A stretch of DNA of 64,000 bases, from contig DAHUYO010000006.1 in assembly GCA_027315185.1 (NCBI GenBank), forward strand, positions 395-64,394, in the 5' to 3' direction. This DNA comes from Acidobacteriota bacterium. Its GTDB lineage: Bacteria; Acidobacteriota; Terriglobia; Terriglobales; SCQP01. Below the pieces are notes generated by a model. It was given only the letters and a program-made list of their open reading frames with translations, had not been told where the DNA came from and did not search any database. Below, in pieces: positions 10,183 through 27,427 of the stretch. Position 1 is the stretch's first letter, and every line of letters begins with the position of its first letter. The position numbers and the translations under genes are program-made.

Positions 10183-11862
10183 CTAGATCGCGCCCCGCTT
10201 CATTTCCTGCATCAAGTGATCGCAGGACCGCACGCACAGCGCCATGATCGTCAGGGTCACGTTCTGGCAGCCGGAGGAAGGAAACGCCGAGCCGTCCATG
10301 ACGAACAGATTGGGCACGTCGTGCGATTGCTCGAATTGATTGAGCACCGAGGTCTTGGGATCGTTGCCCATCCGCGCCACGCCCAGCTCATGGATGGCCC
10401 AGCCGGGAATGGTCGGATGGGCGTAGATGCGGATGTTCTTCGCCCCTGCCGCCTCCAGCATCGCCCCCATCTGCTCGGCCATGTCCTTGACCATGGCGAA
10501 TTCGTTTTCGCCGTACTTGACGTGGAAGCGCAGCACCGGAATCCCGAACGCGTCCACCACCTCGGGATCAATCGAGACGTGGTTCTCCCAGCGCGCCAGG
10601 CTTTCGCCGAAGCCGCCGAAGCCGATCGTCACCCGCGGATCGAAGACCGCCTTGCGGAAGTAGCCGCCGAAGCCCCGCGCCCCCCAGTTGTAATCCACTC
10701 CGCCGCCGCCCTCGTAGCCGTAGCCGCGGATGAACTTGCTGGTCTTGCTGGCCGGGTCGAAGGGCAGGTTGCGGAAGCGCACCGTGTACAGATCGGCCGG
10801 CCGCTTCGGCCCGCTCAGCGTCGGCTTCTCGTTCAGGCCCTCCATCTCCCCGGCCGCGCCGCCGCCCATCACGTTGTCCATGAAGTACCGGCCCACCGCG
10901 CCGCTGGAGTTGGCCATGCCGTTGGGATGCCGCGGCGTGTGCGAGTTCAACAGGATGCGCGCCGACTCCTGCGCCTGCGCGCACAGCACCACCGCCCGCG
11001 CCTTCACGAAATGCCCTTCGCGCGTGATGCGGTCAATGTAGTAGACGCCGTTAGCCCGCTCCCGGTCCTTTTCCATCTCCACGCGGTAGGCCATGGCGTT
11101 GGGGATCAGCGTGCAGCGCCCGGTGCGGATGGCGTCGGCGACGGTGGTGAAGGAGGAGTTGAAATAGGCGTGCGCGACGCAGCCGCGGTGGCAGGGCCCG
11201 CAGTAATGGCAGGGCGCCCGGCCGTTGATGCCCCGCGTCAAGTTGGCGCAGCGGGCCAGCGTCATGGTGCGGTTCATCTTGTCCTTCACCCGCACCCGGA
11301 ACTGCATTTCCGCGCAGCTCAGCCCCATCGGCGGCTGGAACTTCCCGTCCGGCAGCTGCGGCAGGTGCTCCATCATGCCGGTGATGCCGACGTACTCTTC
11401 CACGAGGTCGTAGTACGGCGCCAGGTCGGGATAATCCAGCGGCCAGTCCACGCCATAGCCGTCATAGCTGGCGGCCTTGAAGTCGTAGTGGCTCAGCCGC
11501 AGGCTCACCCGTCCCCAGCAATTCGTCCGCCCGCCGACCATCCGCACCCGTCCCTGCCAGCTGAAGGGCATGTCCTTGTCGGTCGTGTACGGCTCGTCCA
11601 GGTCGTTGCAGTACCAGTTGTGCGTGAACTCGTCGCAGGCGTAGCACTGCACCTGCACCGCCTGCGTCTTCTCCAGCAGGTAGCGCGCCTGGTTGCGGTA
11701 GGGCAGCTCATAGGCGGGCTGGTGCTCGCAGAAATTGGCGTCGGACTGCGGCCGCCCGGCGTCAATCAGCGCAACCTTCAATCCGCCTTCCGCCAGCCGT
11801 TTGCAGGCCCAGCCGCCGCTCGCGCCTGAACCCACTACGATTACGTCATACGGTTCCGCCAT
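10183..11862 (-). CDS. GMC-family FAD-dependent oxidoreductase
   Basis: N-terminal Rossmann motif 'YDVIVVGSGASGGWACKRLAEGGLKVALIDAG'. C-terminal GMC_oxred_C-like 'HELGVARMG...NLFVMDGSAFPSSG'. Confidence 0.85.
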   Translation of the reverse strand: MAEPYDVIVVGSGASGGWACKRLAEGGLKVALIDAGRPQSDANFCEHQPAYELPYRNQARYLLEKTQAVQVQCYACDEFTHNWYCNDLDEPYTTDKDMPFSWQGRVRMVGGRTNCWGRVSLRLSHYDFKAASYDGYGVDWPLDYPDLAPYYDLVEEYVGITGMMEHLPQLPDGKFQPPMGLSCAEMQFRVRVKDKMNRTMTLARCANLTRGINGRAPCHYCGPCHRGCVAHAYFNSSFTTVADAIRTGRCTLIPNAMAYRVEMEKDRERANGVYYIDRITREGHFVKARAVVLCAQAQESARILLNSHTPRHPNGMANSSGAVGRYFMDNVMGGGAAGEMEGLNEKPTLSGPKRPADLYTVRFRNLPFDPASKTSKFIRGYGYEGGGGVDYNWGARGFGGYFRKAVFDPRVTIGFGGFGESLARWENHVSIDPEVVDAFGIPVLRFHVKYGENEFAMVKDMAEQMGAMLEAAGAKNIRIYAHPTIPGWAIHELGVARMGNDPKTSVLNQFEQSHDVPNLFVMDGSAFPSSGCQNVTLTIMALCVRSCDHLMQEMKRGAI

Positions 11863-12011
11863 GGTCTCCCCTTTTTTACCCGCAAGGGAGCGATAGTTTC
11901 ACACCGCGCCGCGGAAAGCAATCCCAAGCCGCCGCGCCGGCGCGAAGATTGCGGAGCGGGCGGCCTTGCCTGTCATCTCGCTCACACTCCGCGTCCGCGC
12001 GGAGAAAACGC

Positions 12012-12100
12012 AACGGCCATCCTCGCGTGTCTGCCCGCCGCGCCGCACGAAGAATGTGGGACGGCCATCCTCGCCTGTCCGCACGCCCGGCGCCGCAACC
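12012..12100. repeat. Tandem ~49-bp degenerate direct repeat (ACGGCCATCCTCGCxTGTCxGCxCGCC...), with a weaker third copy at about 11958-11990
   Basis: Copy 1 starts at 12012 and copy 2 at 12061. About 35 of the first 40 positions are identical. Located in the divergent intergenic region between the GMC gene and the 12257 gene. Confidence 0.45.
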
Positions 12101-12256: not shown

Positions 12257-12919
12257 ATGGAGCAGGGAAGCAAACGAGCGATGCTACGGAACCGCAACAC
12301 TGACAATAAGGATGCGCAGGCCGGCCGGACGGCGCCGCCCGCTTCCGCCGGCGTCAGCCGCCGCCGCATGTTGGGGCAGATGGCCGGAGGTTTGGCCGGC
12401 GCCGGCCTCGCGTTCCCGCTCGCCGCCGAAGCCGCCGCCGTCGGCCGCCCCGCCCGTCCCCCGGCTCTGCCCCACGCCTCGCCGCTCGCCGCCGAAATCG
12501 CCGCGCGGCTGTGGGCCGCCCCGCCGCTCACCGCCTCCCAGCTGCGCGACGCCATCGGGCCGCAACGCACCTCCATTCTCGCCATCCTCGCCGCCGGCCG
12601 GGAGTTGACGCGGGAGCTGCAAATGCTGCGCATCGGGGGCTCGCGCGCCGATCCGCTCTGGGCGCCGGCGTCGTTCGTGTTTCCCGAGTTCCGCCCGGCT
12701 TTGGAGCATACCTCCCGCGACACCGCCGCCGCCGCGCTGGTCTCCAAATATCTGTGGCTGATGGTCGCCGCCACCGAGGACGACGCGGCCGCGTTTTTCG
12801 GCCCGCTATTTTCCCTCAGCCGCTTGCGCGGCCTGCTCGGCGCCTTGGTCGCCGCCGGCGCCCTGCTGCCCGCCTCCGTGGACGGCCGTCCCGGCTTCCA
12901 AGTCGCCCCCGGCGGCTAG
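12257..12919 (+). CDS. Tat-signal hypothetical protein; its 3' end is the target duplicated by the BREX island
   Basis: Twin-arginine-like leader 'SRRRMLGQMAGGLAGAGLAFPLAAEA'. Intact ORF. The last 283 nt recur at 27432-27714. Confidence 0.55.
   Translation: MEQGSKRAMLRNRNTDNKDAQAGRTAPPASAGVSRRRMLGQMAGGLAGAGLAFPLAAEAAAVGRPARPPALPHASPLAAEIAARLWAAPPLTASQLRDAIGPQRTSILAILAAGRELTRELQMLRIGGSRADPLWAPASFVFPEFRPALEHTSRDTAAAALVSKYLWLMVAATEDDAAAFFGPLFSLSRLRGLLGALVAAGALLPASVDGRPGFQVAPGG
12637..12919 (+). repeat. Left copy of the 283-bp direct repeat flanking the BREX cassette
   Basis: Aligned by eye to 27432-27714: three substitutions plus a GC/CG swap just before the shared TAG. The repeat ends exactly at the stop codon. 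Confidence 0.9.
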
Positions 12920-13159
12920 CAGGAATGGCCCTCGGTCCGGCCTTTTGCTCGGGCCCGCCACCCATCAGCGGCGCCCTGACCTTCGCTCCAGGCGTTGCTT
13001 GAAAGCGCGCCGGCCCTTCGGGTACAGTGACAGAGCAGCGCAGCCGGCGGCAACCAATCCCTCGGCGGTAAGGAGATAGAAATCGAGCACAACGCCGGCG
13101 GGCCTTCAGGGTCCACATACACCACCCGGCTGCAAAAGGGAGGGGCGCTGCTGACGGAC

Positions 13160-13876
13160 ATGCGCCTCTTGGTCCGCACCTGGGAGGAGCGCAACCCGGA
13201 CGACGCTGACCGCCGCAAGACGCTGTCCCGCGTGCTCGGCAAGGCGTCCGGCGCCCGCGCGGCGGATACCTACCGGCGGGCCTTCCTGCCGCGGTTCATC
13301 CAGGGCGACCCACCGCAAGCGTGGCGGATTCTCCAGCCACTCGAGTCGGCGGACCTCCCCGTGGAGATCGTCCGCCCCGTCTATTACTGGGTCACCGTAC
13401 GCAGCGAGCCGCTGTTGCGCGACTTCGTCCTGGACGTTCTCCCCGGCTACGCGGCCGCGCCGTACAGGCAGGTGCGCGCCGAGGACGCCTACGCCTGGAT
13501 CGGGCGCCGGCTCGGGCAAGCCGGCCGCCGGTGGTCCCCGACCGTCACGCTCAAGGTCGCCCGCGGCCTTTTGGCCGCCCTACGCGACTTCGGCATTCTC
13601 ACGGGTGGCGCGAAAAAATTCATCGCACCGGCCTACCTACCGCTGGAATCGTTCGCCTATCTCGCCTTCGCCCTCCACCGCCTCGGCGCCTCCGGGGCCC
13701 GGCTGCTGGCGCACCCGGATTGGCGCCTGTTCCTATTGCCATCCGGCGCGGTGGAGCAGCTTTTCTTGCGGGCGCACCAACATCATTATCTCAACTACCA
13801 AGCCGCTGGGCGTATCATCCGAGTTGACTTCACCGCCGGCAATTACCGGGAGATGGCCGATGCCCTCCAGCGTTGA
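13160..13876 (+). CDS. brxA: BREX protein BrxA (DUF1819); the true start is probably upstream of the first ATG (frame open from 13031)
   Basis: First position in the BREX operon. The frame upstream of the ATG encodes 'YTTRLQKGGALLTDMRLLV', which I recall as BrxA N-terminus-like. AGGAG lies at 13070-13074. Confidence 0.75.
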   Translation: MRLLVRTWEERNPDDADRRKTLSRVLGKASGARAADTYRRAFLPRFIQGDPPQAWRILQPLESADLPVEIVRPVYYWVTVRSEPLLRDFVLDVLPGYAAAPYRQVRAEDAYAWIGRRLGQAGRRWSPTVTLKVARGLLAALRDFGILTGGAKKFIAPAYLPLESFAYLAFALHRLGASGARLLAHPDWRLFLLPSGAVEQLFLRAHQHHYLNYQAAGRIIRVDFTAGNYREMADALQR

Positions 13877-14453
13877 AATCCATTTTCAGGAGCTCGAGCG
13901 CGACCTCGCCAGCCAGCCGATGCGCATCAGCGCCTATCACGACCTGCCCTTCGCCATGCTCGCCTACCCGGCCAACCAAGAGTTCGAGTGCCGTGCGCGC
14001 ATTCGCCAGCTGGCGTTCTCCCTCGAGGGGCAGGGGCGGCGCGTCACCTTCATCTCTCTGGCGGCGCTGGTGTGGCGGGCGATTGAAACGACGGAGGGGC
14101 TGGACGCCATCGCCGCGGAGGAGCGCCAGTTCGGCTTCGAGCGCGCGCAGGAGACGGTGAATCGCATCCTCTCCGACGCTGATTTCGCCCCCCTCGCCGG
14201 GCTGCTCCTGGCCCGCATCGCCGGGCTTGACCCCGCAAGGGACATCGTCTTCCTGGTCCGGGCGGGCGGGCTGGCGCCGGCCATCTACCGCCGCGCGCGG
14301 CTGCTCGATGAGCTTCACGGCCAGACCCGCGTGCCCCTAATTCTCTTCTATCCCGGCTCGCCCGGGAAGGGCGGCCTGCATTTCATGGGCCTGCCGCCGC
14401 AACGCTACGCGGACGTGTACAACTACCGCATCAAGATCTACGGGGAGCAATGA
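13860..14453 (+). CDS. brxB: BREX protein BrxB (DUF1788)
   Basis: Sequence 'ISAYHDLPFAMLAYPANQEFECRARIRQL...VTFISLAALVW...DIVFLVRAGGLAPAIYR...ILFYPGS...YNYRIKIYG'. The ATG at 13860 overlaps the brxA end by 17 nt. Confidence 0.85.
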   Translation: MPSSVEIHFQELERDLASQPMRISAYHDLPFAMLAYPANQEFECRARIRQLAFSLEGQGRRVTFISLAALVWRAIETTEGLDAIAAEERQFGFERAQETVNRILSDADFAPLAGLLLARIAGLDPARDIVFLVRAGGLAPAIYRRARLLDELHGQTRVPLILFYPGSPGKGGLHFMGLPPQRYADVYNYRIKIYGEQ

Positions 14454-17400
14454 TGGAAACCATCGGCGAACTCTTCGCCAAGCCGATCGGCCGAACGATC
14501 GAGGAAGTGATCAAGGTCGGCCAGTCGGACGAATCGGTTGTCAGGGACGAGATCGCGGAGTATGTCGTCACCGACTCCATCCGCGATCATTTCCGGGAAC
14601 TCTATAAGGCCTTCGCCGATGCGCCGGCGGAGCCTACCGAGGGCATCGGCGTCTGGCTCTCGGGTTTTTTCGGGTCCGGCAAGTCCTCCTTCGCCAAGAT
14701 CCTCGGCTACACCCTCGCCAACAGAAATTTGGGCGGCGCCACCGCCAGCGAACTCTTCAAGAGAACGGCCTCGGACGGCACGATCGAGGCGTTGTTGGAC
14801 CTGATCAACCGCAAGATCCCCACCGACGCCGTAATCTTCGACATCTCCATGGAACGCGGCGTGCGCGGCGCCGATCGCATCACCAGCATCATGTACAAGG
14901 CCCTTCTCCGGGGCCTGGGCTACGCCGAGGATTTCGACCTCGCCGCGCTGGAGATCACCCTGGAGGCCGACGGCAGGCTCGCCGCCTTCGAGAAGAAATT
15001 CAACGAGCTGAATCGCGAGCCGTGGGAAAAGCGGCGCAAGGTGGGCCTCGCCATCAACGAGGCGAGCCGCGCCCTTCACGTCATGGACCCGGAAAATTTT
15101 CCCGAGGCGGGCTCGTGGGCTAGGCAGGCCGCCGGACGTGCGGATATCACGCCCAACGAGCTCGCCCAGCGCTCATTTGAACTGATGGCCCGGCGCCGCC
15201 CGGGCCGCGCCCTGGCGTTCATCATTGACGAGGTCGGCCAGTGGGTCTCCCTCAGCGTGGATCGCATGCTGGATCTCATGGGGGTGGTCCAGGCATTCGG
15301 GGTCGAGGGACGGAACCGCGTCGCGGCCCGCAAGGCCCCGGCGCCGGCTTGGATCGTCGTGACCGCGCAGGAGAAGCTGAACGAGGTGGTCACCGCCCTC
15401 GACTCGAAAAAGATCGAGCTCGCGCGCCTTCAGGATCGGTTTCGCCATGCGATTGACCTGAAGCAGACCGACATCTCCCAAGTCACCAGGCAGCGCGTGT
15501 TGGACAAGACGGCAGCGGCGGCGAAGATGCTCGCCAAGATTTATCGGGACAATGAGCCGCGCTTGAAGGAATTCTGCTCCCTGGAGGCCACCGGCCGCGC
15601 CCGGCCCATCACCCAAGACGACTTTGTGGGGCTTTATCCCTATCTTCCCTACCAGATCGAGCTGTCCATTGATATCGTGTCCGGGCTTCGCTCCCGCCGC
15701 GGCGTGTTCCAGCACGTAGGCGGCAGCAACCGCACCATCATCAAGCAGGCCCAGCAAATGATGATCCACGACCGCACCCATTTGGCGAGGGAGCCGGTCG
15801 GTACTCTGGTCACGCTGGACAAGCTGTACGAGCTCCTTTTCGCCGGCAATCTCTTGCCTACCGAGGTGACGCGCGAGGTGGAGGCGGTCGCCACGCAGCT
15901 CCCCGGCAACGCCATGGCGCTCAAGGTGGCCAAGGCCATCGCGCTGCTGGAGGACGTGACACGCCTGCCCCGCACGGCGCGCAACATCGCCGTGGTCCTG
16001 CACCCCGCCGTCGGCACCGACTCGCTCCGCTCGGCGGTCGAGGCGGCGATCCAACAGCTGGAGAAAGCCCAGTTCATCCGCGAGGCCGACGATGGCTATA
16101 AGCTCCTGACCGCGCAGCAGAAGAACTGGGAACGCGAGCGGAACGGCCTGGAGCCCAAACCGGCGGAACGCAACGGCGTCATCCGCGGCCTGCTGCGCGA
16201 GGTCTTCGAGGAGCCGAAGCTCCGAGGCTACAAATTCCAGGGCTTGCGCGCGTTCCGCGTGGCCCTCGGCTTCGAGGGCGAGGCGATCGGAGACGACGGC
16301 GAGGTCGGCTTCAACGTCCTCCCAGCGGAGGGGCCGGAGGACCGCGCCCAGCGGGCTCAGGAGGCCAGAACGCAGAGCAACGGCGACCAGGAGCGGATTT
16401 TTTGGGTAGCCGACTTCGGCGGCCAGATCGGCCGCCAGATCGTCGAGCTGTTCCGCTCCAAACAGATGGTCGAGACGCGCTCGCTGGCCGCCTCGCAAAA
16501 GACGCTGTCCGCCGACGAGCAGGTCGCCTGGAACGACGAGAAGATCCGCCAGGACCGCATTCACCGCGCCTTGCGCGAGGCAATCACCGCCGCCGTTGCC
16601 GCCGGCGTCGGCTATTTCCAGGGAGTGGAGAAAAACGGCCCGTCCCTGGGCAAATCTCTGGCGGAGGTTCTCGCCGCGCTGTTGGACGCCGCCGTGCCCC
16701 TGCTCTACCCAATGCTGCAGATGGGAAGCCGTCCCGTCGCTGGGGACGAGGCGGAGAAGTTCCTGACCGCGGCGACGCTGAACGGGCTGCCCCCGATCTT
16801 CTACTCGGACGGCGACGGCCTCGGCTTGGTCGCCTCCCAGGCCGGCAAGTTCGTGCCCAACCTGGCCGCCCCAATCTGCAAGCAGGTGCTCGAATATCTC
16901 CGCCGCGAATATTCCTTCGGCAACAAGATCACCGGCAAATCCCTGGAGGCGCACTTTAGCGCCCCGCCCTACGGCTGGGCGCTCGACGTCCTCCGCCTGG
17001 TGATGGCCGTCCTGCTGCGCGGCGGCGGCGTCGAGGTGACCCACCAGGGGCGCAAATACCGCAACCATGCCGATCCCCCCAGCCGAGTTCCTTTCACCAG
17101 CAACACCGCCTTCCGCGCCGCCTCCTTCGCGCCTCGCGAAGCCCTCGACCTCAAGATCCTCGGCGAGGCCGTGCGCAAATACGAGGCGCTCACGGGCAAG
17201 GACGTGGACGTCGAGGAGAACGCCATCGCCCAAGCCTTCCAGAAGCTCGCCGGCGAGGATCTCCAGCGCCTGTTGCCGCTGGAGGCCCGTATGGGAGCCC
17301 TCCGCCTCCCAGGGGCGGATTGGGTTGCCGAGCAGCGCCAATACCTCGAGGCGATCCTCGCCATGACCACCGATGACTGCGTGAAAACCCTATCGGGGGA

Positions 17401-18091
17401 GGGGGAAACCTATAAGCAGGCGCGCGCGCGCATTGCCCGGCTGGAGGCGGCGACCACCGAAGCCAACATCGCCGCCCTGGCGGCGGCTCGCCGCGCCTTG
17501 GAGTCCCTGTGGTCGGTGCTCAGCGCCCAAGGCACGGACGCCGAGACCGCCGCCGCGGCGGAGGGGCTGGCGCGCGCGCTCGCCTCCGAGCGCTTCTACG
17601 ACGAGCTTGGGCCGATCCGCGACGCGGCGGAGCGCATCGCCCGCGCCTACCAGGTGGCCTACGAGCGCGTCCACCAGGCGCGCAGTGACGTCTACGGCCA
17701 GGCCCTCGATGCCGTCCGCGGCATGCCCGAGTGGGGCGCGCTCGCCCGGAACGCATCCGTTCCCGCCGAGACCCGGGATGCCCTTCTCGCCCCGCTCTCC
17801 AGCCGGGCCTGCGAGCTCCATTACCAGCCGGAATCGGGCCTCTGCGCGCGGTGCCGCGCCGGCGTGAGCCAGATGCTTGCCGAAGCCGAAGCCGTCGAAG
17901 GCGTCCGCGCCCAGGTGGCGCAACGGGTGCGCCAGGCCGCCATGCCGGAGCAGCGCATCGAACGCGTCCGCGTCGGCGCCCTGGTGGCGGGCCCGCTGGA
18001 GACCGAAAAGGACATCGAGGACGCCCTGGGCGCCCTGCGCGACCGCCTCAGACAGCTTCTCGCCGCCGGCGTCCGCATCGTGCTGGAGTAG
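14450..18091 (+). CDS. brxC: BREX P-loop ATPase BrxC/PglY
   Basis: 1213 aa. Walker A 'GFFGSGKSSFAKILGY' lies near the N-terminus. ATGA overlap with the brxB stop. Canonical third position in type 1 BREX. Confidence 0.9.
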   Translation: MMETIGELFAKPIGRTIEEVIKVGQSDESVVRDEIAEYVVTDSIRDHFRELYKAFADAPAEPTEGIGVWLSGFFGSGKSSFAKILGYTLANRNLGGATASELFKRTASDGTIEALLDLINRKIPTDAVIFDISMERGVRGADRITSIMYKALLRGLGYAEDFDLAALEITLEADGRLAAFEKKFNELNREPWEKRRKVGLAINEASRALHVMDPENFPEAGSWARQAAGRADITPNELAQRSFELMARRRPGRALAFIIDEVGQWVSLSVDRMLDLMGVVQAFGVEGRNRVAARKAPAPAWIVVTAQEKLNEVVTALDSKKIELARLQDRFRHAIDLKQTDISQVTRQRVLDKTAAAAKMLAKIYRDNEPRLKEFCSLEATGRARPITQDDFVGLYPYLPYQIELSIDIVSGLRSRRGVFQHVGGSNRTIIKQAQQMMIHDRTHLAREPVGTLVTLDKLYELLFAGNLLPTEVTREVEAVATQLPGNAMALKVAKAIALLEDVTRLPRTARNIAVVLHPAVGTDSLRSAVEAAIQQLEKAQFIREADDGYKLLTAQQKNWERERNGLEPKPAERNGVIRGLLREVFEEPKLRGYKFQGLRAFRVALGFEGEAIGDDGEVGFNVLPAEGPEDRAQRAQEARTQSNGDQERIFWVADFGGQIGRQIVELFRSKQMVETRSLAASQKTLSADEQVAWNDEKIRQDRIHRALREAITAAVAAGVGYFQGVEKNGPSLGKSLAEVLAALLDAAVPLLYPMLQMGSRPVAGDEAEKFLTAATLNGLPPIFYSDGDGLGLVASQAGKFVPNLAAPICKQVLEYLRREYSFGNKITGKSLEAHFSAPPYGWALDVLRLVMAVLLRGGGVEVTHQGRKYRNHADPPSRVPFTSNTAFRAASFAPREALDLKILGEAVRKYEALTGKDVDVEENAIAQAFQKLAGEDLQRLLPLEARMGALRLPGADWVAEQRQYLEAILAMTTDDCVKTLSGEGETYKQARARIARLEAATTEANIAALAAARRALESLWSVLSAQGTDAETAAAAEGLARALASERFYDELGPIRDAAERIARAYQVAYERVHQARSDVYGQALDAVRGMPEWGALARNASVPAETRDALLAPLSSRACELHYQPESGLCARCRAGVSQMLAEAEAVEGVRAQVAQRVRQAAMPEQRIERVRVGALVAGPLETEKDIEDALGALRDRLRQLLAAGVRIVLE

Positions 18092-18093
18092 CC

Positions 18094-18930
18094 ATGGAGT
18101 CGCTGAACCTTTTCAACCAAAACTTCGCGGTCGTGGAGAGCCTTCTCCAGCTCTACCAGCTCTTCGGCGGCCTCCGGGAAGCGGAGCCGAGCGAACAACT
18201 CCGCCTCGCGGTCTGCGCCGCCTGGGGAGATCCCGGTTCGGCGCTGGTGCGCCACGCCCGCAACGATCGGGCCATGGTGATGGCCCGCGCCGTGGCTGTC
18301 ATTCCCCCGTCCCTCACCAGCCAACGCGGGCTGGATTTTCTCCTCCGCCAGGCGGTCGTCGTGGTCTGCGGCTCGCTCGAAGCGTTCTTTTGGGATTCCC
18401 TCCGGGAGAACGTGCTCACCATCGTCCGCGCCCGCGGCTCCAGGTCGGACAGATCCCTCACCGACCTGACGCTCACCTTGGGCGATTACATGTCCATCCT
18501 CCAGTACGCGGACCCGGACCTCCGCCTGCAACAGATCATCCTCAAGAACTTCGAGAGGCGCACGCTCTACGACACCGCGTCGATCGAAAAGATCACCCAA
18601 GTGCTGACCGTCGAAAGGTTCTGGGACCAGGTGGCGGAGAAATGCGGGAAAAAGCCGCAAGACATGCGCGCGGCGATCGCCGACCTCATCAGCCGCCGCA
18701 ACCTCATCACCCACCGCGCCGACCGGCCCGAGCGGGATGAGCCGTCCGACGAGCTCGGGCTCCGGCCTATCTCATTCGCCTGGACCAGCCTGCGCGTGCA
18801 GGAGGCCAGGGCGCTCGTCGCCGCCGGCGCGGAGCTGATGGAACATGCCCTGCGCCGCCTGCAGGCGCAGATCCGGGCCAGCGAGGAACAGATGGAGGCG
18901 CGGCGGGCCGCCGAGCGGGCGTCCGCCTAA
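18094..18930 (+). CDS. Accessory 278-aa protein inserted between brxC and pglX; putative HEPN-like (RNxxxH) nuclease
   Basis: ATG lies 3 nt after the brxC stop and the gene ends 15 nt before pglX. Appears helix-rich by inspection. 'ISRRNLITHRAD' contains the R-N-x3-H motif (R202...H207, nt 18697-18714). Confidence 0.5.
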   Translation: MESLNLFNQNFAVVESLLQLYQLFGGLREAEPSEQLRLAVCAAWGDPGSALVRHARNDRAMVMARAVAVIPPSLTSQRGLDFLLRQAVVVVCGSLEAFFWDSLRENVLTIVRARGSRSDRSLTDLTLTLGDYMSILQYADPDLRLQQIILKNFERRTLYDTASIEKITQVLTVERFWDQVAEKCGKKPQDMRAAIADLISRRNLITHRADRPERDEPSDELGLRPISFAWTSLRVQEARALVAAGAELMEHALRRLQAQIRASEEQMEARRAAERASA

Positions 18931-18945
18931 AGGAAAGGTTGCACC

Positions 18946-21900
18946 GTGGATCCGAATACCGTTGCCGCGCTGCGTAGTTTTACCTTGGACGCCAGGGCCT
19001 TCCTCGAGCAGGAGGCCAGCGAACAGCTCGAAGGCCTTTATGGCTGGATCCCTGGCGGCGACATCAGCCCGGCCAAGCACTACCCCGCCCTCACGGCCCA
19101 CGCGGAGGCCAAGGAGACCCGCCGCCGCCTGGAGCAGTTCCTCGCCGACGAGGGCGCCGCCGGCCTCAACCCCAAGGCGGCGCGCGCCAAGCTGGTGAAG
19201 GAAGCCGCCTTCACTTGGCTCAACCGCTTTGTCGCCTTCAGGCTGATGGAGGGCAGCGGCTTGATCAAGCAGACCGTCTCGCGCGGCGCCGAATCCAACG
19301 CCTTCAAGCTCTGGCTCACCGAGGCGGCCAACGCGCCCTGGCTGGCGGAGTACGAGCGCGGCGACCTCCCCAAGGACGAGATCGGCGAGGGTCCCCGCGC
19401 ACGCGCCTATCGCCGGTTCCTGCTCGCCCAATGCGCCAGGCTGGCGGAGGAGATCCGCGTCCTTTTCGACCCCGACGACCTGCCCAGCCGCCTTTTTCCC
19501 CGCGCTCCCGCCCTCCAGCGCCTGGTCGCCGCCGCCGGCGAAGAGGCCCTCGCGCCGGCCTGGGCCCCGGGCGGCGAGGAGGCCGTGGGCTGGATTTACC
19601 AATCGTTCAACGCTCGCGAGCTGGAGAGCGCCTTCCGCGAAGCGCGCACCTCCGGGAGGAAGTTTCAGAAGGAAGACATCGCCTCGGTCACGCAGCTGTT
19701 CACGCCACGCCTGGCGGTCAGTTTTCTGGTCGAGAACACGCTTGGACGCCTATGGCTCGAGATCCACCCCGACACCAGGCTGGCTCCCGGCTGGACCTGC
19801 CTCGCGCAGCCGCCCGGCGCCGCCGGGGCGACGCCCCGGCTCGCCCGAGAAATCACCTTCATGGACCCCGCGTGCGGCACAATGCATTTCGGGCTTGTCG
19901 CCTTTGACCTTTTCGCCGCGATGTACCAGGAGGAGATCGCCCGTGCCGGCGAGCCCGGCTGGCCTGCCACCCCGTCGGTCGCCAGCCAGCAGGAGATCCC
20001 CGCCGCCATCATCGCCAACAACCTCTTCGGGGTCGACATAGACCTACGGGCGGTCCAGCTGGCGGCACTGGCGCTTTACCTCCGCGCCAAACGGCTGGGC
20101 CCAGGCGCCGTCATACGCGACACGAACCTCGCTGTAGGCGGTGTCGAGGTCCTCGGCGGGCGCCGCCTCGAGAGGTTCCTCGCCGCAGCGGGCTTCGACG
20201 AGCCCGCCTACGAGGAGCTGACCCGCGCCGCATGGTCGGAGCTCGAGGCCGCGGAACAGCTCGGCAGCCTCCTCCGCCCGGAGCGGATCGTGGAAAGCGC
20301 CGTGGGATCGGCGAAGAAAGCGCGCGGGCCGGAACTGCCTCTCTTCGATGGGCTCTGGCAGAACCTCGCCGCGGCGGTCGCAAAGTCGCTCGATGAGTTC
20401 GCGCGCGGGGAGGCGGCCGCGGGCCGGCAGGCGACCTTCTTCGCGGGCGAGGGCGCGAGGGGCCTTCGCCTCCTCGACCTTCTTGCCCGCCAGTACGACG
20501 TCGTCGCGACCAACCCGCCGTACATGTCAAGCCGCAAGATGAACCCGACGCTGAAGGGCCTGGTCGCCAAGCATTTCCCATCCGCGAAAGGCGACCTGTA
20601 CGCGGCCTTCGTCGAGCGCTGCCTCGAGCTCGCCGGCCAGGGGGGCCGAGTCGGTATGCTCTCGATGCACTCTTTCATGTTTATCAGCTCCTACGAGCCG
20701 CTGCGTGGGCGGATCGCGAAGCGGGCCGCGATAGAAGCCCTCGCGCATTTCGGGCCGGGGCTCTTCGCGGTGGGCAACCCGGGCACCCTGCAGACCGCTG
20801 CGTACGCCCTGCGCCGCGAGCCGGACGCCGAGCGGCGCAAAGAGGCGGTGGGCACCTATTTCCGGCTGGTAAAAGAGCGGGACGCGCAGGCCAAGCAGAA
20901 GGCTTTCGAGGAATCGCTCGTCCGCCTCAAAAGCGGCCAGCCGGATCCGCGCGTCTTTCATTACCGCCAAGCCGACTTCGACGCCATCCCCGGCAGCCCC
21001 TGGGTCTATTGGATCACCCCCGGCCTGCGCCGCCTGTTCAAAGATTCGCCCCAGATGGCCTCGCTCTGCCAGCCGAAGATTGGAATGAGGACCGGGGACA
21101 ATCCCCGGTTCCTGCGCTATTGGTGGGAGGTCGGGCGCGGCGCCGTGGGCTTTGGGGCGGCCGACGCCAAGGGCGCGCTGCGGTCGGGCAAGGGGTGGTT
21201 CCCCTATATGAAGGGCGGCGCCTTCCGCAGGTGGTACGGGAACCAGGATCGGGTCGTCCGCTGGGCGGGCGACGGCGAGGAGATCAAGGAGAACACGCGG
21301 AGGCAATACCCGAGCCTCGGGGAGAACCTTGGGTGGAAGATCAGCAACGAGGGGTGCTATTTCCGCCGCGGCGTGACCTACTCCTACCTGACCGCCGGCC
21401 GTTTCAGCGCCCGGCTTTCTCCTGGTGGGTTCATTTTCGACGTCGCCGGTTCGTCGCTCTTCCCGGACGACGTGCCGCCCACCCTCGCGGTGATGAACTC
21501 GGAATTCGCGGCCTACGCGCTGTGCCTGATCAACCCCACCGTGAATTTCCAGGTCGGGGACATCGCCAGGCTGCCGATGCCGAGGCTATCGAGCCAGGCC
21601 CTCGAGCGCCTGGTCAATGAGGCCATCGCCCTGGCTCGCGCCGACAGCGAGGAGGACCAGACCACCTACGACTTTATCGCCCCGCCCGCCTGGCCCGGCG
21701 GCGCGGCTGACGTCGCCGCGCGCCACACGCGATTGGCGGAGATTGAGAGGGAACTGAACGAGGAGGTGTATCGCCTTTACGGCGTCGGCGCCGAGGACCG
21801 CGCGGCAATTGAGCGCGAGCTGGCGAAAAACGCCGGCGCGCCGGACGAGCGCGGCGAGGGCGAAGACAATGGCGAGGAGGGCGAAGACGGCGGCGAGGAG

Positions 21901-22791
21901 GCGGAGGCGGCAGGGGCCGAGGGTATGGGGCTGGCGCCGGAGGAATTGGCGCGGCGTTGGATCAGCTACGCTGTCGGCGTCGTGCTCGCCCGGTTCGACG
22001 TGGGAAAGGATGGTGGGTTGGGCCGTGGCCGCTTCCCGCCAAAAACCAACGACGCCCTGCGGCAGCTAGCCGCGCCCCGCGGCCTGCTGGTCCAGGACCC
22101 AGGCCATCCCGACGACTTCGCCCATCGCGTGCTTGCCGCCCTGCGCGTCATGCTCGGCCCGGACGCAGCCGACGACGCCGTCCACGCCGCCACCGGCACC
22201 GCCCGCCCGGCGGAAGACGCCCTGCGGGATTACCTGCCGCGCGCCTTCCTGAAATGGCATATTCAGGCGTATCGCAAACGCCCGGTCTATTGGCTGCTGG
22301 AGTCGCCCGCCCGCGCCTACGGCGTTTGGCTGTTTCATGAGCGGTTGGCGAAAGACACCCTGCTGCGCGTGCAGGCCGATTACCTGAATCCGAAAATCCG
22401 CCGCCTGGAGGGCGAGCTGAAGGGGATCAAGCAAAAGGAGGAGAACGCCGCCGGAACCGAAAAACGGCGGCTGAAATCCCAGGCGGACACCTGCATGGAC
22501 CTGCTCAACGACCTGCGCGAATTTCAGAAACGCCTCGACGACGCGGTCCAGGGCGGCTATGCGCCCCACCGCGACGACGGCGTCCTGCTGAACCTGGCGC
22601 CGCTCCGGGAACTGATCCCGGCGTGGTCGGCGGAGCCCCGCAAGGCATGGCAGGCGTTGCAGAAGGGCGAGTACGATTGGGCGCGCCAAGCGATGGCGTA
22701 TTGGCCGGACCGCGTGCGGGCGAAGTGCAAGAACAACCGCTCGTTCGCCATCGCCCACGGCCTTGAAAAGGCGGAGGCGGCCGGTGGCTAG
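18946..22791 (+). CDS. pglX: BREX N6-adenine DNA methyltransferase PglX
   Basis: 1281 aa. Catalytic 'VVATNPPYMSSRK' (NPPY). GTG start. Canonical position. Confidence 0.9.
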   Translation: MDPNTVAALRSFTLDARAFLEQEASEQLEGLYGWIPGGDISPAKHYPALTAHAEAKETRRRLEQFLADEGAAGLNPKAARAKLVKEAAFTWLNRFVAFRLMEGSGLIKQTVSRGAESNAFKLWLTEAANAPWLAEYERGDLPKDEIGEGPRARAYRRFLLAQCARLAEEIRVLFDPDDLPSRLFPRAPALQRLVAAAGEEALAPAWAPGGEEAVGWIYQSFNARELESAFREARTSGRKFQKEDIASVTQLFTPRLAVSFLVENTLGRLWLEIHPDTRLAPGWTCLAQPPGAAGATPRLAREITFMDPACGTMHFGLVAFDLFAAMYQEEIARAGEPGWPATPSVASQQEIPAAIIANNLFGVDIDLRAVQLAALALYLRAKRLGPGAVIRDTNLAVGGVEVLGGRRLERFLAAAGFDEPAYEELTRAAWSELEAAEQLGSLLRPERIVESAVGSAKKARGPELPLFDGLWQNLAAAVAKSLDEFARGEAAAGRQATFFAGEGARGLRLLDLLARQYDVVATNPPYMSSRKMNPTLKGLVAKHFPSAKGDLYAAFVERCLELAGQGGRVGMLSMHSFMFISSYEPLRGRIAKRAAIEALAHFGPGLFAVGNPGTLQTAAYALRREPDAERRKEAVGTYFRLVKERDAQAKQKAFEESLVRLKSGQPDPRVFHYRQADFDAIPGSPWVYWITPGLRRLFKDSPQMASLCQPKIGMRTGDNPRFLRYWWEVGRGAVGFGAADAKGALRSGKGWFPYMKGGAFRRWYGNQDRVVRWAGDGEEIKENTRRQYPSLGENLGWKISNEGCYFRRGVTYSYLTAGRFSARLSPGGFIFDVAGSSLFPDDVPPTLAVMNSEFAAYALCLINPTVNFQVGDIARLPMPRLSSQALERLVNEAIALARADSEEDQTTYDFIAPPAWPGGAADVAARHTRLAEIERELNEEVYRLYGVGAEDRAAIERELAKNAGAPDERGEGEDNGEEGEDGGEEAEAAGAEGMGLAPEELARRWISYAVGVVLARFDVGKDGGLGRGRFPPKTNDALRQLAAPRGLLVQDPGHPDDFAHRVLAALRVMLGPDAADDAVHAATGTARPAEDALRDYLPRAFLKWHIQAYRKRPVYWLLESPARAYGVWLFHERLAKDTLLRVQADYLNPKIRRLEGELKGIKQKEENAAGTEKRRLKSQADTCMDLLNDLREFQKRLDDAVQGGYAPHRDDGVLLNLAPLRELIPAWSAEPRKAWQALQKGEYDWARQAMAYWPDRVRAKCKNNRSFAIAHGLEKAEAAGG

Positions 22792-25363
22792 GGTTTCGGG
22801 CGAGCTGCGGCGCATAATCGAGGCCCAGCTCGCCGCCCGCGGCATCGTGGTCTGGTACGACGCGGAGAGGGCCTACGAGCAGTGGGTTGGGTCCCTCGCG
22901 CTGCCCGACGCGCCGGTGCTGCGGTACGAGTCCAGCTTTTTCGCGCTAAAAGCCGCGCTGGAGCCGTTCCTCGAATGGGTCGCCGCCGACGGCCGGCCCG
23001 ATCCCGGCGGCCACGTCCCGCGCCGCGTCCTGGTCTACGTTCCGCTCAGCCAGGACCAGTCGCATTACGCCCTGGTCGAAGCCGAAACCGCCGGCGCGGT
23101 CCTGCAGCCCGGCGCGCAGCCGCGGCAAGACACGCGGCTGAAGACCATCGCCGAGCGGGTATTCCGGGAAGTTGACCCCCAGCAGGCGGCGGAAGTTGGA
23201 CTCCAGGTGGAACGCGGCGCCTACGGCCTCGCGGAGCTGGACCGGATGGCGGAGCAGCAGGGCTCCGCCGCCGACGCGGGACTCCGCCTGATTTTCAACA
23301 CGGCCTCGCCCACCGAGGTGGCGCTGGCCTTTGCCCAGGATGGCCGCTACGATGCCGCCATCACCGCCAAGCAGGCGATGCCGCCGCTGGCCGCTCTGCT
23401 GGAGGCGGAGTTCGGCGTCGCCCTGAAGCCCAGCACCGCTCCGGCAGCCGCCCGCGCCGAGGTCCGCCGGCGCCTGCTGGCTGGCGATCTTCTGGCCGGC
23501 ATCCCGTCCGCGCAGCGCCCCCGCCAGCTCACGGCGCTTGCTCCGGGGGACGAGGCGCAGCTCGGGCGCTGCCGCCAGGTCTGCGAACATTGGCGCAACC
23601 GCGTGGACGCGCGGGAAGAATATTCCCACGCGGCCCGCCAGGTTGAGGCGGAGGTCCGCTTCCCATCTCTGTCCATCCCCGTGGCCGCCCTGGCGGCGAG
23701 TGAAACGTTTCCATCCGCCGAGGAAGTGCTGCTGGCGGAGGCGGAGGGTCGGATCACCGCCGGCGAGCTCCGCCCGGCGCTGGAGCTGGCGGAGGCTCGT
23801 CTCCGCTACTTTTGGGCGACCGCTGAGCCCGCCTTCGGCCTACAGTGGGCGTTCCTCGCGTCGGCCTGCCGCGCCGGACTTCTCGCCTCCACCGTCCGCG
23901 CTGCGCTGAAGCCGGCCCAGCGCGACGCCGACGGCCTTCTGGCGGCTTACGCGGCGGGCCCCGAGCCCTGGTGCCTGTTGGATACGTATTATCGCCAGAT
24001 GGAATCCTACGACGCCCAGCGCCGCGAAAGAGCCGCGGGGGACCGCGACGGGCTGGACCGCGCCGTTCGCCAGACCCGCCAAACCTACACCGAGGCCGTG
24101 GCGGCGCTGGCTGAGGCCTGGACCGACGCGCTCGCCGCCTCCGCATTCCGCCCCCAAGGCGCGCCGCGCCAAGACCGCGTGTACGCCGACTACGTCGCGC
24201 CGGCTCTCCGCGAAGGCCGCCGGACGGCTTATTTCCTCGTAGACGCCTTGCGTTTCGAGATGGGCCGGGAGCTGGCGTTAAGCCTCGAAAGGGACTTTGA
24301 GGCGGCCCTGTTCCCGACGCTGGCCGTCGCGCCGACGGTTACCGAGGTGGGCATGGCGGCACTGCTCCCCGGCGCCGAGCAGGGGATGGCGCTGGCCAGC
24401 AAGGCGGAAAAGCTAGCCGTGCGGCTGGACGGAGCGGTCCTGCGCGACCGCGCCGGGCGCCTGGCCTACATGCAAAGCCGCGTGGAGGCAAAGCTGCTGG
24501 CGCTCAAGATGTCGGAGATTTCCCGCGCCAAGCGCAAAATTGAGGAGGCCAGCCCCGGCCTGCTGCTGGTCACCTCGCAGGAAATTGACAAGCAAGGAGA
24601 GATGGGCGATGACGACGACGGCGCCCGGGAATACATGAACAATATGCTGGCCAGGCTCAGCCAGGTCATCTCCCGCCTGGCGCAGCTCGGATTCGAACAC
24701 TTTGTCATCGCCGCCGACCACGGGCACTTGTACGGCGAGGCCGGCGAGGCCGGCCTCAAGATGGATCCGCCCGGCGGCCAGACCCTGGCGCTGCGCCGCC
24801 GCGTTTGGGTTGGCCGGGGCGGCGATTCCGGCGCCGGATTCCTCCGTCTCTCGTCCCGCGACCTGGGTCTGGACGGCGAATGGGAGGCGGCGTTTCCGCG
24901 GGGCCTGGGGCTGTTCAAAACCCGCGGCGGTTCGGCGACCTATTTTCACGGCGGGCTGTCCTTGCAGGAAATGCTGATCCCGGTGCTCGTGCTCAAGGCC
25001 AGGGCCCGGCAGCCCGCGGCGCGCGGGGCGCGCGTGGAGCTCGCGCTCGCGCGCGGCAAGGTCACGACGCGATTCTTTTCGCTGACCCTGACGTATCGCG
25101 CCGAGGGGTTGTTCGGCGCGGACGCGGTGGAAGTCAGGCTGGCCGTGACCGCCGGCAGGAGGGAAGCCGGCGCGCCGGTGATGGCCGCGTACGGCTTCAA
25201 CGAGGCTAGCCGGGAGGTTCGCCTCCTGAGGGACCAGCCCAATCCGGTCACCGTCGGCGTGGCCGAGGAGGGAATCACGCGCCTGACCGTTACCGTGCAG
25301 GATGCGGCCACCCAAGTGGAGCTAGGCCGCCTGGAGAACATTGCAGTCGAGATCGCGATCTAG
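22763..25363 (+). CDS. pglZ: BREX alkaline-phosphatase-superfamily protein PglZ (start TTG 22763 or GTG 22784)
   Basis: N-terminal 'IVVWYDAERAY'. PglZ-domain region 'YFLVDALRFEMGREL ... FVIAADHGHLY'. Overlaps the pglX stop. Confidence 0.85.
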   Translation: MKRRRRPVARVSGELRRIIEAQLAARGIVVWYDAERAYEQWVGSLALPDAPVLRYESSFFALKAALEPFLEWVAADGRPDPGGHVPRRVLVYVPLSQDQSHYALVEAETAGAVLQPGAQPRQDTRLKTIAERVFREVDPQQAAEVGLQVERGAYGLAELDRMAEQQGSAADAGLRLIFNTASPTEVALAFAQDGRYDAAITAKQAMPPLAALLEAEFGVALKPSTAPAAARAEVRRRLLAGDLLAGIPSAQRPRQLTALAPGDEAQLGRCRQVCEHWRNRVDAREEYSHAARQVEAEVRFPSLSIPVAALAASETFPSAEEVLLAEAEGRITAGELRPALELAEARLRYFWATAEPAFGLQWAFLASACRAGLLASTVRAALKPAQRDADGLLAAYAAGPEPWCLLDTYYRQMESYDAQRRERAAGDRDGLDRAVRQTRQTYTEAVAALAEAWTDALAASAFRPQGAPRQDRVYADYVAPALREGRRTAYFLVDALRFEMGRELALSLERDFEAALFPTLAVAPTVTEVGMAALLPGAEQGMALASKAEKLAVRLDGAVLRDRAGRLAYMQSRVEAKLLALKMSEISRAKRKIEEASPGLLLVTSQEIDKQGEMGDDDDGAREYMNNMLARLSQVISRLAQLGFEHFVIAADHGHLYGEAGEAGLKMDPPGGQTLALRRRVWVGRGGDSGAGFLRLSSRDLGLDGEWEAAFPRGLGLFKTRGGSATYFHGGLSLQEMLIPVLVLKARARQPAARGARVELALARGKVTTRFFSLTLTYRAEGLFGADAVEVRLAVTAGRREAGAPVMAAYGFNEASREVRLLRDQPNPVTVGVAEEGITRLTVTVQDAATQVELGRLENIAVEIAI

Positions 25364-25375
25364 GAGCCGAAACCA

Positions 25376-27427
25376 ATGGCGCTGGGCACGGAGAAAACAA
25401 CGACGGATCTGGACCAAAAGGCGTCAGCGGTCTTCGCCGGCAAGGTGGTCCGCAAGGACTTGGTGCGCAAGGTCAAGGTCGGCGCCAACGTGCCCGTGTT
25501 CGTGCTCGAGTACCTGCTGGGCAAGTATTGCGCCACGGACGATCCCCAGGCGATCGAGGCCGGCCTGCGGGTGGTGAACTCCACCCTGGCGGAAAATTTC
25601 GTCCGGCCCGACGAGGCCAACAAGGCGCAGTCATTCGTTCGCGAGAAGGGAACCCATTCCCTGATTGACAAGGTCAAGGTCCGATACCTTTCCGACGACG
25701 ACAAATATTGGGCCGAGCTCGTGAATTTCGGCCACCGCTTCGTCCATATCCCCGACCAATACGTCCGCCAATTCGACCGCCTGCTCATGGGCGGGGTCTG
25801 GGCTCAGGTAAAACTCCGGCACCAGTACGACGATTCCGCCAGTGGCAAGAAGAGCCCATTCCGGATCGAAGAACTCCAGCCGATCCAGGTGGCCACCTTC
25901 AGCCTGGACGACTACCGCTCCGCCCGCGCCGCGTTCTCAACCGAGGAGTGGATTGACCTTTTGATCCGTTCCGTCGGCTTGGAGCCGACGGGCTTCGACC
26001 ACCGCCTCAAGCTCCTTCTGCTCACCCGTTTGCTCCCCCTCTGCGAGCCCAACTTCAACCTTGTCGAGCTGGGGCCGCGCGGCACCGGCAAGTCCTACGC
26101 CTATCAGGAGCTGAGCCCCTACGTCATCCTGCTCACCGGCGGCACCACCGTAGCCAATCTGTTTTACAACATGGCCACAAACCGGATGGGCCTGGTCGGA
26201 CTCTGGGACGCGGTGGCCTTCGACGAGGTCGCCGACCTGCAAAAGATGCCCAAGGAAGTCGTCACCACCTTGAAGACGTACTGTGAATCAGGGTCCTTCG
26301 CGCGGGGCAAGGAGTCCCTAACCGGCCACGCCTCAATCGCTCTATTCGGCAACACCAACCAGCCCGTCGAGGTGATGGTGCGCTCTTCCCACCTGTTCGT
26401 CCCGCTTCCCGACGCCATCCGGGAAGACCTCGCCTTTCTGGATCGCCTGCACTTCTACCTGCCCGGATGGGAAATACCCAAAATGCGGGTGGAATTCTTC
26501 ACCGACCACTACGGCTTCGTGGTGGACTACTTGGCCGAGGCGTTGCGCGAGCTGCGGCGGCACAACTTCACCGAGCTGCTCGACCGCCACTACGCGCTCG
26601 GCGCCCATTTGAACGCTCGCGACGTCAAGGCCGTACGAAAGACCGTGGCTGGCCTGGCCAAGCTGATTTACCCGAGCGGCGACGTGACCAAGGAGGGATT
26701 GGGCGAGATCGCCGAGCTGGCGCTGGAGGGCAGGCGCCGGGTGAAGGAGCAGCTCAAGAAGATGGGCTCGTTCGAATACCACCAGACCTCGTTTTCGCTG
26801 ATCGACGCCGAGACCAGGGAGGAGAAATATGTCGGTGTGCCGGAAGAGGGGGGAAGGAATCTAATCTCCGCGGATCCGCTCGCCCCAGGGTCGGTCTACA
26901 CCGCGGCCGTGGATTCCGAGGGCAAGGTGGGCCTTTACCGGCTGGAGGTGGGCTGCTCGCCGGGCACCGGAAAACTGAAAATCAGCGGCGCGGCCGATGG
27001 AGAGATGAAAGAGGCGATCCAGCGCGCGTTCGCCTACCTGCGCGGGCACAAGGTGGAGATGGGCATCGCGCAGGCCCTCGACACGACGGATTTCCACGCC
27101 GAGGCGATTGACCTGCTCGGCAACTACGTCCCCTGCGACGCCGGCGTCGCGCTCGTGGTCGCTGTCTATTCGGCCCTCAAGAAACAACCGGTCCTGCCCG
27201 CGCTCCTCGTGCTCGGCGACCTGAGCATCCAGGGCAACATCAAGCCTACCCACTCGCTCGCCGAGCCCCTACGCATCGCCATGGACAACGCCGCCCGCCG
27301 GGCGCTGATCCCGCTGGAGAACAAGCGCCATTTCCTTGAGGTCCCCGCCGATATCGTCGAGCGCGTGGATCCCATCTTCTTCGGCGACCCCATGACCGCA
27401 GCGCTCAAGGCCCTGGGAATGAACTGA
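25376..27427 (+). CDS. brxL: BREX Lon-like protease BrxL
   Basis: N-terminus 'FAGKVVRKDLVRKVKVGANVPVFVLEYLLGKYCATDDP'. AAA-like 'LGPRGTGKSY'. C-terminal Lon protease-like domain. Last gene of type 1 BREX. Confidence 0.9.
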   Translation: MALGTEKTTTDLDQKASAVFAGKVVRKDLVRKVKVGANVPVFVLEYLLGKYCATDDPQAIEAGLRVVNSTLAENFVRPDEANKAQSFVREKGTHSLIDKVKVRYLSDDDKYWAELVNFGHRFVHIPDQYVRQFDRLLMGGVWAQVKLRHQYDDSASGKKSPFRIEELQPIQVATFSLDDYRSARAAFSTEEWIDLLIRSVGLEPTGFDHRLKLLLLTRLLPLCEPNFNLVELGPRGTGKSYAYQELSPYVILLTGGTTVANLFYNMATNRMGLVGLWDAVAFDEVADLQKMPKEVVTTLKTYCESGSFARGKESLTGHASIALFGNTNQPVEVMVRSSHLFVPLPDAIREDLAFLDRLHFYLPGWEIPKMRVEFFTDHYGFVVDYLAEALRELRRHNFTELLDRHYALGAHLNARDVKAVRKTVAGLAKLIYPSGDVTKEGLGEIAELALEGRRRVKEQLKKMGSFEYHQTSFSLIDAETREEKYVGVPEEGGRNLISADPLAPGSVYTAAVDSEGKVGLYRLEVGCSPGTGKLKISGAADGEMKEAIQRAFAYLRGHKVEMGIAQALDTTDFHAEAIDLLGNYVPCDAGVALVVAVYSALKKQPVLPALLVLGDLSIQGNIKPTHSLAEPLRIAMDNAARRALIPLENKRHFLEVPADIVERVDPIFFGDPMTAALKALGMN

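Follow-up and report, generated by a model that had tools for sequence, protein, structure and literature searches.

A predicted HEPN ribonuclease gene linked to brxC in a sub-lineage of type 1 BREX systems

A type 1 bacteriophage exclusion (BREX) operon from an Acidobacteriota bacterium carries, directly behind brxC, a gene that is predicted to encode a ribonuclease (RNase) of the HEPN superfamily. The operon lies in a stretch of 64,000 nucleotides (nt), hereafter the window, which corresponds to positions 395 to 64,394 of contig DAHUYO010000006.1 (assembly GCA_027315185.1). It is complete and runs on the plus strand in the order brxA-brxB-brxC-[HEPN open reading frame]-pglX-pglZ-brxL. All six core genes were identified in this one operon by Pfam, PADLOC and NCBIfam models, which places the locus in type 1 BREX, a system of six conserved proteins according to PMC13326643. 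The additional open reading frame (ORF), of 278 amino acids (aa), is probably a seventh, facultative gene in one sub-lineage of type 1 BREX, and its product would act as an RNase effector controlled by BrxC; this reading is favored here with appreciable reserve. The gene is tied genetically to brxC, and not to the brxC-pglX gap, and this linkage is old and extends across phyla.

The occurrence of HEPN genes in BREX and Pgl loci is already known, having been reported in 2013 and 2026 (PMC3710099, PMC12839542). What is added here, besides the old cross-phylum link, is that the gene behaves as a satellite of brxC rather than as a gap filler, that it is dispensable and sometimes decaying, and that it is present in cultured hosts. 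The role of BrxC is among the least understood parts of BREX, and a predicted RNase coupled to brxC across phyla suggests that this ATPase can control an effector, an idea to which the HEPN-DUF499 fusions in BREX-related systems also point.

Assignment to the HEPN superfamily

An initial annotation, made from the letters of the window, had described a helix-rich 278-aa ORF between brxC and pglX and had pointed to the string SRRNLITHRAD as an R-N-x3-H match to the catalytic motif of HEPN RNases. The ORF, its translation and its homologs agree with this description. The string occupies residues 200-210, so that the motif reads R202-N203-x3-H207, with a polar asparagine after the arginine. Neither the length of the ORF nor the motif alone is strong evidence, because this DNA, at 68% G+C, has long ORFs in every frame and because Rx4-6H is common in shuffled sequence: it appeared in 67% of the shuffles of this Arg-rich protein, and the stricter R[NDH]x3-5H in 9%. 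The gene is regarded as real because 281 relatives were found among 5.8 billion proteins, most of them 275-285 aa long and 50-76% identical and all with PF18735 (HEPN_RiboL-PSP), because the window protein itself reaches 33.3 bits with this profile (curated gathering score, 28.4), and because the motif is invariant.

The conservation of the motif, proposed in the initial annotation as a check on its HEPN assignment, upheld that assignment. All 37 aligned homologs matched PF18735 (best, 1.9e-14), and the other recurrent weak matches were to HEPN families only, namely MAE_28990 in 18 of the 37, plus Swt1 and Apea. In this alignment R201, R202, N203, H207, D210, R211 and P212 are invariant. In a wider set of 77 proteins, which were taken from 88 loci and include a second clade (B) at 26-32% identity, RRNxIxHRAD is retained by every member at identities of 26-76%, and position 96, located in helix 77-113 of the model described below, is always acidic (Glu in clade A, Asp in clade B). 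HEPN proteins carry a second conserved acidic residue upstream of the motif, in helix-2, and position 96 is a candidate for it. RefSeq already labels one homolog as a HEPN domain-containing protein. The family is small and accounts for 401 clusters (50% identity) among 1.84 billion representatives. The gene has no PADLOC BREX model and no NCBIfam model, scans of the protein with PADLOC, NCBIfam and PHROGs gave no informative family, and no homolog was found by tblastn in 72,556 plasmids. Sequence searches of the PDB returned nothing meaningful, whether the query was the protein itself or the profile of its family.

The AlphaFold2 model (pLDDT 86.3 at full length and 88.6 for residues 1-252) is confident and helix-rich, as had been judged by inspection, and was classed as all-alpha, with one small beta-hairpin and four long helices at 2-24, 77-113, 188-206 and 228-277. 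In this model R202 and N203 close helix 188-206, which ends at T206, and H207 is the first residue of the loop that leads to helix 228-277. The HEPN motif is expected where core helix-3 ends and the loop towards helix-4 begins (PMC3710099), and the modeled position agrees with this helix-3 placement. The best structural hint came from BFVD, where a phage MAE_28990-like HEPN was matched by the full-length model (E 0.24, probability 0.85). All-helical Foldseek queries are prone to return many meaningless helical-bundle matches. It could be argued that the protein is a helical protein of another kind with a chance Rx4H in an Arg-rich sequence, given that Rx4-6H is frequent in shuffles and that neither Foldseek nor the PDB sequence searches matched a HEPN structure significantly. 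This explanation is hardly credible, since the homologs pass the PF18735 gathering score without exception and drift in their secondary matches only towards other HEPN families, while the motif is invariant, falls at a helix end and has a conserved acidic residue upstream of it. Profile, motif and modeled motif placement together support the assignment of the ORF as a standalone HEPN-superfamily protein of the RiboL-PSP-HEPN family, and the invariant, intact Rx4H motif makes it most likely a metal-independent endoribonuclease.

The RiboL-PSP-HEPN family was described as 'Ribo L-PSP-HEPN' by Anantharaman et al. (2013), who considered it distantly related to the AbiD/AbiF Abi proteins (PMC3710099). 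The window protein shares with it a profile score above the cut-off and a conserved Rx4H with Asn after the Arg. The 2013 entry, however, lists only fusions to endoRNase L-PSP and ParB operons and no Pgl or BREX context (PMC3710099), whereas the subfamily described here consists of standalone proteins of about 280 aa that are extended at the N-terminus, carry a long helix at the C-terminus and are linked to BrxC. No L-PSP or ParB gene was found near the HEPN gene, the contexts seen being BREX or ABC efflux.

Linkage to brxC

Loci were scanned from one genome per species (11 loci) and from metagenome contigs (77 loci), and the BREX proteins of the window were located in them by tblastn. As the initial annotation had anticipated for a defense gene, the homologs are found overwhelmingly in BREX loci. 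The C-terminus of BrxC lies directly upstream of the HEPN gene in 65 of the 74 loci with more than 400 nt of upstream sequence, and in all 11 genome loci. The distance between them in these 65 loci is nearly always 5-11 nt by the tblastn metric, which equals 2-8 nt of intergenic DNA. In the window, the brxC stop codon TAG (18089-18091) is separated from the HEPN ATG at 18094 by 2 nt, and not by 3 nt as had been given, and a GGAG at 18085-18088 precedes this ATG by 5 nt. This arrangement suggests translational coupling, and a similarly short spacing, 2-6 nt, is seen in most of the 65 loci. At the other end, the 15 nt reported between the HEPN stop codon (TAA, 18928-18930) and the pglX GTG at 18946 were found as described.

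The view of the gene as one nested between brxC and pglX holds for the window and for the 60 loci in which pglX is the next BREX gene downstream; in five others that place is taken by pglZ, and the constant neighbor is brxC. The loci L076, L079, L080 and L082 have the order BrxA-BrxB-PglX-BrxC-HEPN-PglZ-BrxL, in which the HEPN gene still stands behind brxC and thus has moved together with it. The distant HEPN clade (L066-L087, 26-32% identity) is likewise joined to brxC. In addition, pairwise HEPN distances follow BrxC distances with r = 0.90-0.92, the mean divergences being 0.41 and 0.40, and this correlation is as tight as that of BrxC with PglZ or BrxA. It indicates long co-inheritance and is not to be read as a probability, because the sequences are mutually related. 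A recent horizontal insertion of the HEPN gene alone was considered and rejected on account of this co-divergence and of the G+C content of the gene (0.66), which is within the range of the operon in surroundings of 68% G+C.

These data bear on an alternative that regards the HEPN gene as autonomous, either a toxin or a single-gene defense module, and as merely lodged in the BREX operon, independent of BrxC and of the other BREX proteins, in the manner of PARIS, GmrSD/BrxU or Schlafen insertions in BREX loci. A place behind brxC that is kept when the gene order changes, an intergenic gap of a few nt and a divergence as deep as that of BrxC, second clade included, all argue against such independence, as does the lack of a cognate antitoxin or sensor gene of its own. 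Set beside independent defense genes of BREX hotspots such as PARIS and BrxU, the HEPN gene differs in its fixed position, in its BrxC-coupled divergence (r = 0.9) and in having no PADLOC match. Of the three options raised in the initial annotation (an effector wired into BREX, a nested defense gene, or a regulator), synteny and co-divergence favor the first.

The third option corresponds to a BREX subunit with a regulatory or structural function, and not to a suicide effector. The protein could, for instance, bind or process the polycistronic BREX mRNA and so set the BrxC:PglX stoichiometry, or could be a scaffold for BrxC assemblies. The tight coupling to brxC and the location at the brxC/pglX boundary agree with this explanation; the long C-terminal helix 228-277 of the model could mediate oligomerization, and some HEPN domains are non-catalytic binders, such as MtlR (PMC3710099). 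It is nevertheless quite improbable: non-catalytic HEPN proteins typically lose the motif (PMC3710099), whereas the catalytic R, N and H are invariant here in all homologs; the gene also precedes pglZ in the alternative order and so is not specific to the brxC-pglX junction; and its loss in about half of the clade, described below, speaks against an essential structural role.

Two variations of this arrangement were also observed. One sub-group (L007, L032, L033 and L034; e.g., L032 5265-5778) has wider spacers than the few nt seen elsewhere, of about 512 nt between BrxC and the HEPN gene and of about 239 nt between the HEPN gene and pglX. In L083 (3110-15788) and L084 (3389-12682), a tandemly repeated module consists of the C-terminal half of PglX (residues about 669-1280), BrxC and HEPN, behind which comes a further PglX C-terminal half and, in L083, also a second BrxC; it may represent a duplicated or shuffling BREX specificity module.

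Facultative presence and proposed role

The HEPN gene is found in BREX loci of Desulfobacterota (Desulfatibacillum alkenivorans DSM 16219, strain NaphS2, Desulfosalsimonas propionicica and Geobacter sulfurreducens), and also in Armatimonadota, Planctomycetota, Verrucomicrobiota, Hyphomicrobiales and Candidatus Saccharicenans. Within a lineage, its presence is optional. Among nine BrxC relatives, 52-57% identical and chosen solely by the length of their contigs, without regard to the HEPN gene, five have a PF18735 gene right behind brxC (Table 1). The gene is therefore not a core component of type 1 BREX, which would be expected in essentially all of them. A neighbor-joining BrxC tree, which is without support values and in which HEPN-positive loci are over-sampled, puts the HEPN-less proteins in two separate places among the HEPN-positive ones, and this suggests at least two losses.

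Table 1. Presence of a PF18735 gene behind brxC in nine sampled BrxC relatives
BrxC relative	Locus	PF18735 gene after brxC	Remarks
P0327 (G. sulfurreducens)	L089/L090	yes	
P0340	L092	yes	Schlafen/AlbA_2 + HATPase_c_4 genes behind pglX, between pglX and pglZ (13442 onward)
P0381	L094	yes	
P0308	L097	yes	HEPN gene split into 87 + 187 aa (8658-9487)
P0329	L098	yes	
P0323	L091	no	MNT (PF01909) + classical HEPN (PF05168) pair between pglX and pglZ (12643-13370); no brxC-linked HEPN
P0353	L093	no	
P0278	L095	no	Schlafen/AlbA_2 + HATPase_c_4 genes behind pglX, between pglX and pglZ (12843 onward)
P0295	L096	no	degraded locus

Decayed copies were seen in several loci besides L097. In L011 (strain NaphS2, 10001-10465) the HEPN protein is truncated to about 155 aa and the motif is gone, in L061 (855-1656) the gene is frameshifted, and in L064 (10001-10426) only the C-terminal half is detectable. 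Such copies are consistent with a costly or dispensable gene.

A side-branch of the family, at 41-50% identity and with RRNxIxHRAD intact, sits outside BREX loci (L052 8298-9113, also L053; L056 10001-10789, also L057 and L073; L059 3871-4659; L060 5890-6699; L047 1974-2789). Its context in the loci other than L047 is a tripartite ABC efflux operon made up of HlyD, two ABC_tran genes, two ABC-2 permease genes, the HEPN gene and the outer-membrane factor OEP. The HEPN gene is behind OEP in L056 and L059 and beside a TetR gene in L060, and the short contig of L047 has no detectable BREX genes. A neighbor-joining tree nests this branch within the BREX-linked clade.

With regard to the autonomous module introduced above, the facultative occurrence of the gene in five of nine sampled loci is in its favor, and so are the sister loci with other RNase accessories placed elsewhere (the MNT gene with a PF05168 HEPN in L091; Schlafen genes in L092 and L095), the survival of the side-branch in ABC efflux operons, and the fact that accessory nucleases are commonly embedded in BREX loci (PMC12839542). 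Moreover, according to a review table in PMC10952713, the HEPN domain of the anti-phage systems PD-T4-2, PD-T4-5, PD-T7-3 and ApeA is PF18735, which appears there among small stand-alone defense systems. No PADLOC model of a stand-alone system matches the window protein, however, and those of the four systems named gave no convincing match to it. Taken with the linkage to brxC, this alternative is unlikely, although it deserves to be kept in mind.

The preferred reading of a BrxC-controlled RNase effector was reached because no antitoxin gene accompanies the HEPN gene, because HEPN-DUF499 fusions exist elsewhere, and because standalone HEPN proteins of BREX loci have been read in the literature as effectors. 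We infer that the protein is an active RNase, that it is coupled to BrxC physically or through regulation, and that its action is abortive. Its synthesis would accompany that of BrxC, and this STAND/ORC-like BREX ATPase would keep it inactive. When BREX is triggered, overwhelmed or inhibited, the HEPN protein would cleave RNA, presumably of the host and/or the phage, and this cleavage would form a backup arm of abortive infection or growth arrest. As to the antitoxin, the initial annotation had noticed that no MNT or other partner is adjacent, and the present analysis agrees: no candidate was found near the gene, and ORFs that overlap it or run antisense to it, on both strands, have no Pfam match. 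An antitoxin hidden on the opposite strand or in another frame was therefore rejected, such ORFs being expected at 68% G+C.

A more specific version of this proposal, which is put forward tentatively and is unlikely as it stands, holds that BrxC and the HEPN protein are a sensor-effector or guard pair in which the RNase is held inactive on BrxC. Recognition of unmodified phage DNA by BrxC, or the binding of a phage anti-BREX protein to BrxC, would release or activate the HEPN protein; OrbA is an anti-BREX protein of this kind that acts through BrxC (PMC11580459). If true, this BREX-1 lineage would have a built-in abortive-infection arm that punishes the inhibition of BREX, and the brxC-HEPN dyad would provide a direct read-out of BrxC activation.

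Several observations weigh against a BrxC-controlled effector. The gene is missing from four of the nine BrxC relatives of the same clade and hence is dispensable for the lineage, and its copies are truncated or frameshifted in L011, L061, L064 and L097. The motif-intact side-branch in ABC efflux operons without BREX indicates that the HEPN protein can exist without BrxC. No fusion of BrxC with this HEPN was found among the best 150 of the 401 family representatives, all of them of 396 aa or less. HEPN distances correlate nearly as well with PglZ and BrxA as with BrxC, and plain co-inheritance in a single operon would likewise produce such co-divergence. Finally, Foldseek searches of the PDB with the full-length and trimmed (1-252) models gave no match at E<0.001 to solved HEPN structures.

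The BrxC-controlled effector proposed here can be compared with several known arrangements. Standalone HEPN, Schlafen and PIN RNases recur inside BREX core loci, where the HEPN proteins are read as backup suicidal effectors (PMC12839542). The window gene shares with these HEPN genes the setting in a core BREX-1 operon, the flanking core genes, the absence of an MNT gene and the presumed role of an auxiliary RNase effector. The main text of PMC12839542 treats HEPN generically, naming neither the RiboL-PSP family nor a fixed place behind brxC, and the results given here go beyond it in the tie to brxC, which holds for both deep clades and under both gene orders, and in the presence of the gene in about half of one BrxC clade. 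In the HEPN-DUF499 fusions of the Type-1 BREX-related Hma systems (first noted in PMC3710099), which are known from 1370 taxa of BREX-related systems (PMC12839542), a HEPN RNase is similarly combined with a STAND/ORC-like ATPase of the BrxC family in a defense operon that contains a methyltransferase. There, however, the HEPN domain belongs to the Swt1/Abi2 family and is fused N-terminally to a BrxC-like DUF499 ATPase, whereas here it is of the RiboL-PSP family and is encoded by a separate gene downstream of brxC.

Anantharaman et al. (2013, PMC3710099) found the pEK499_p136 and RloC HEPN families within operons of the Pgl type, 'in a few instances'. The similarity lies in a HEPN gene in one operon with PglZ, PglY/BrxC, PglX and a Lon-type ATPase, for which suicide or a limitation of burst size has been proposed. 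Those are other HEPN families with a sporadic occurrence, while the association described here is systematic within a BREX-1 sub-lineage. Toxin-antitoxin modules of the HEPN-MNT type also have a HEPN RNase toxin with the Rx4H motif. They differ from the present case in their adjacent MNT gene, which was not found beside the HEPN gene of the window and which is present in the sister locus L091 as part of a true MNT+HEPN (PF05168) pair.

From a practical point of view, the presence of the dyad in the cultured Geobacter sulfurreducens, Desulfatibacillum alkenivorans DSM 16219 and Desulfosalsimonas propionicica makes experimental work feasible. Because PADLOC 2.0.0 has no model for the HEPN gene, it would report the seven-gene BREX-1 variant as a system of six genes and leave the gap unexplained.

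Layout of the BREX locus

The features of the locus are collected in Table 2. The start of brxB is placed at an ATG that is in frame with a longer ORF from 13605 and is preceded by GGGAG; alignments of BrxB homologs begin near residue 83-96 of this long ORF. Similarly, the longest ORF of pglZ begins at TTG 22763, and many of its homolog alignments start at residue 8.

Table 2. Coordinates of the HEPN gene and of the BREX genes in the window
Feature	Position	Strand	Basis
HEPN gene, 278 aa + stop, RiboL-PSP-HEPN family (predicted), probable facultative seventh BREX-1 gene	18094..18930	+	ORF, translation, Pfam PF18735
Predicted Rx4H RNase active-site codons, R201-R202-N203-L-I-T-H207-R-A-D210	18694..18723	+	sequence, homolog alignment, AlphaFold2 model
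E96 codon, conserved acidic residue, candidate second HEPN active-site residue	18379..18381	+	77 homologs; helix 77-113 of model
brxC-HEPN junction: GGAG, brxC stop TAG, 2 nt, HEPN ATG	18085..18096	+	sequence
brxA	13160..13876	+	Pfam BrxA, PADLOC BrxA
brxB, likely start ATG 13860	13860..14453	+	Pfam and PADLOC BrxB
brxC, 1213 aa, P-loop ATPase	14450..18091	+	PADLOC BrxC 870 bits, NCBIfam BREX_BrxC 720 bits
pglX, 1281 aa, BREX-1 adenine methyltransferase	18946..22791	+	NCBIfam BREX_1_MTaseX 816 bits, Pfam Eco57I
pglZ, likely start GTG 22784	about 22784..25363	+	Pfam PglZ, PADLOC PglZ
brxL, Lon-like	25376..27427	+	NCBIfam TIGR02653 1056 bits; Pfam BrxL_N, BrxL_ATPase, Lon_C

A BrxE gene (PF26412) lies directly upstream of brxA in the related BREX-1 loci L095 (3114-3662) and L096 (3085-3621); in the window, no Pfam-recognizable gene was found at this position. 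The region of the ORF at 12257-12919 (220 aa, no Pfam match), upstream of the operon, holds short imperfect direct repeats at 11938-12087 and 12406-12532, in which a unit of about 45 nt is present three times and others of about 30 nt occur in pairs (families D2, D4 and D6). The 3' end of this ORF also forms the first copy of a 284-nt direct repeat, 98% identical, which brackets the whole BREX cassette (12637-12920 and 27432-27715; spacing, 14,795 nt) and has no integrase between its copies. The second copy starts 5 nt past the stop codon of brxL and reaches into the beginning of a PepSY-domain ORF (27549-28163), and both copies hold the same terminator-like hairpin, GGCCGCGTTTTTCGGCC. This arrangement suggests that the cassette was inserted with target duplication, or that BREX may be lost when the two repeats recombine.

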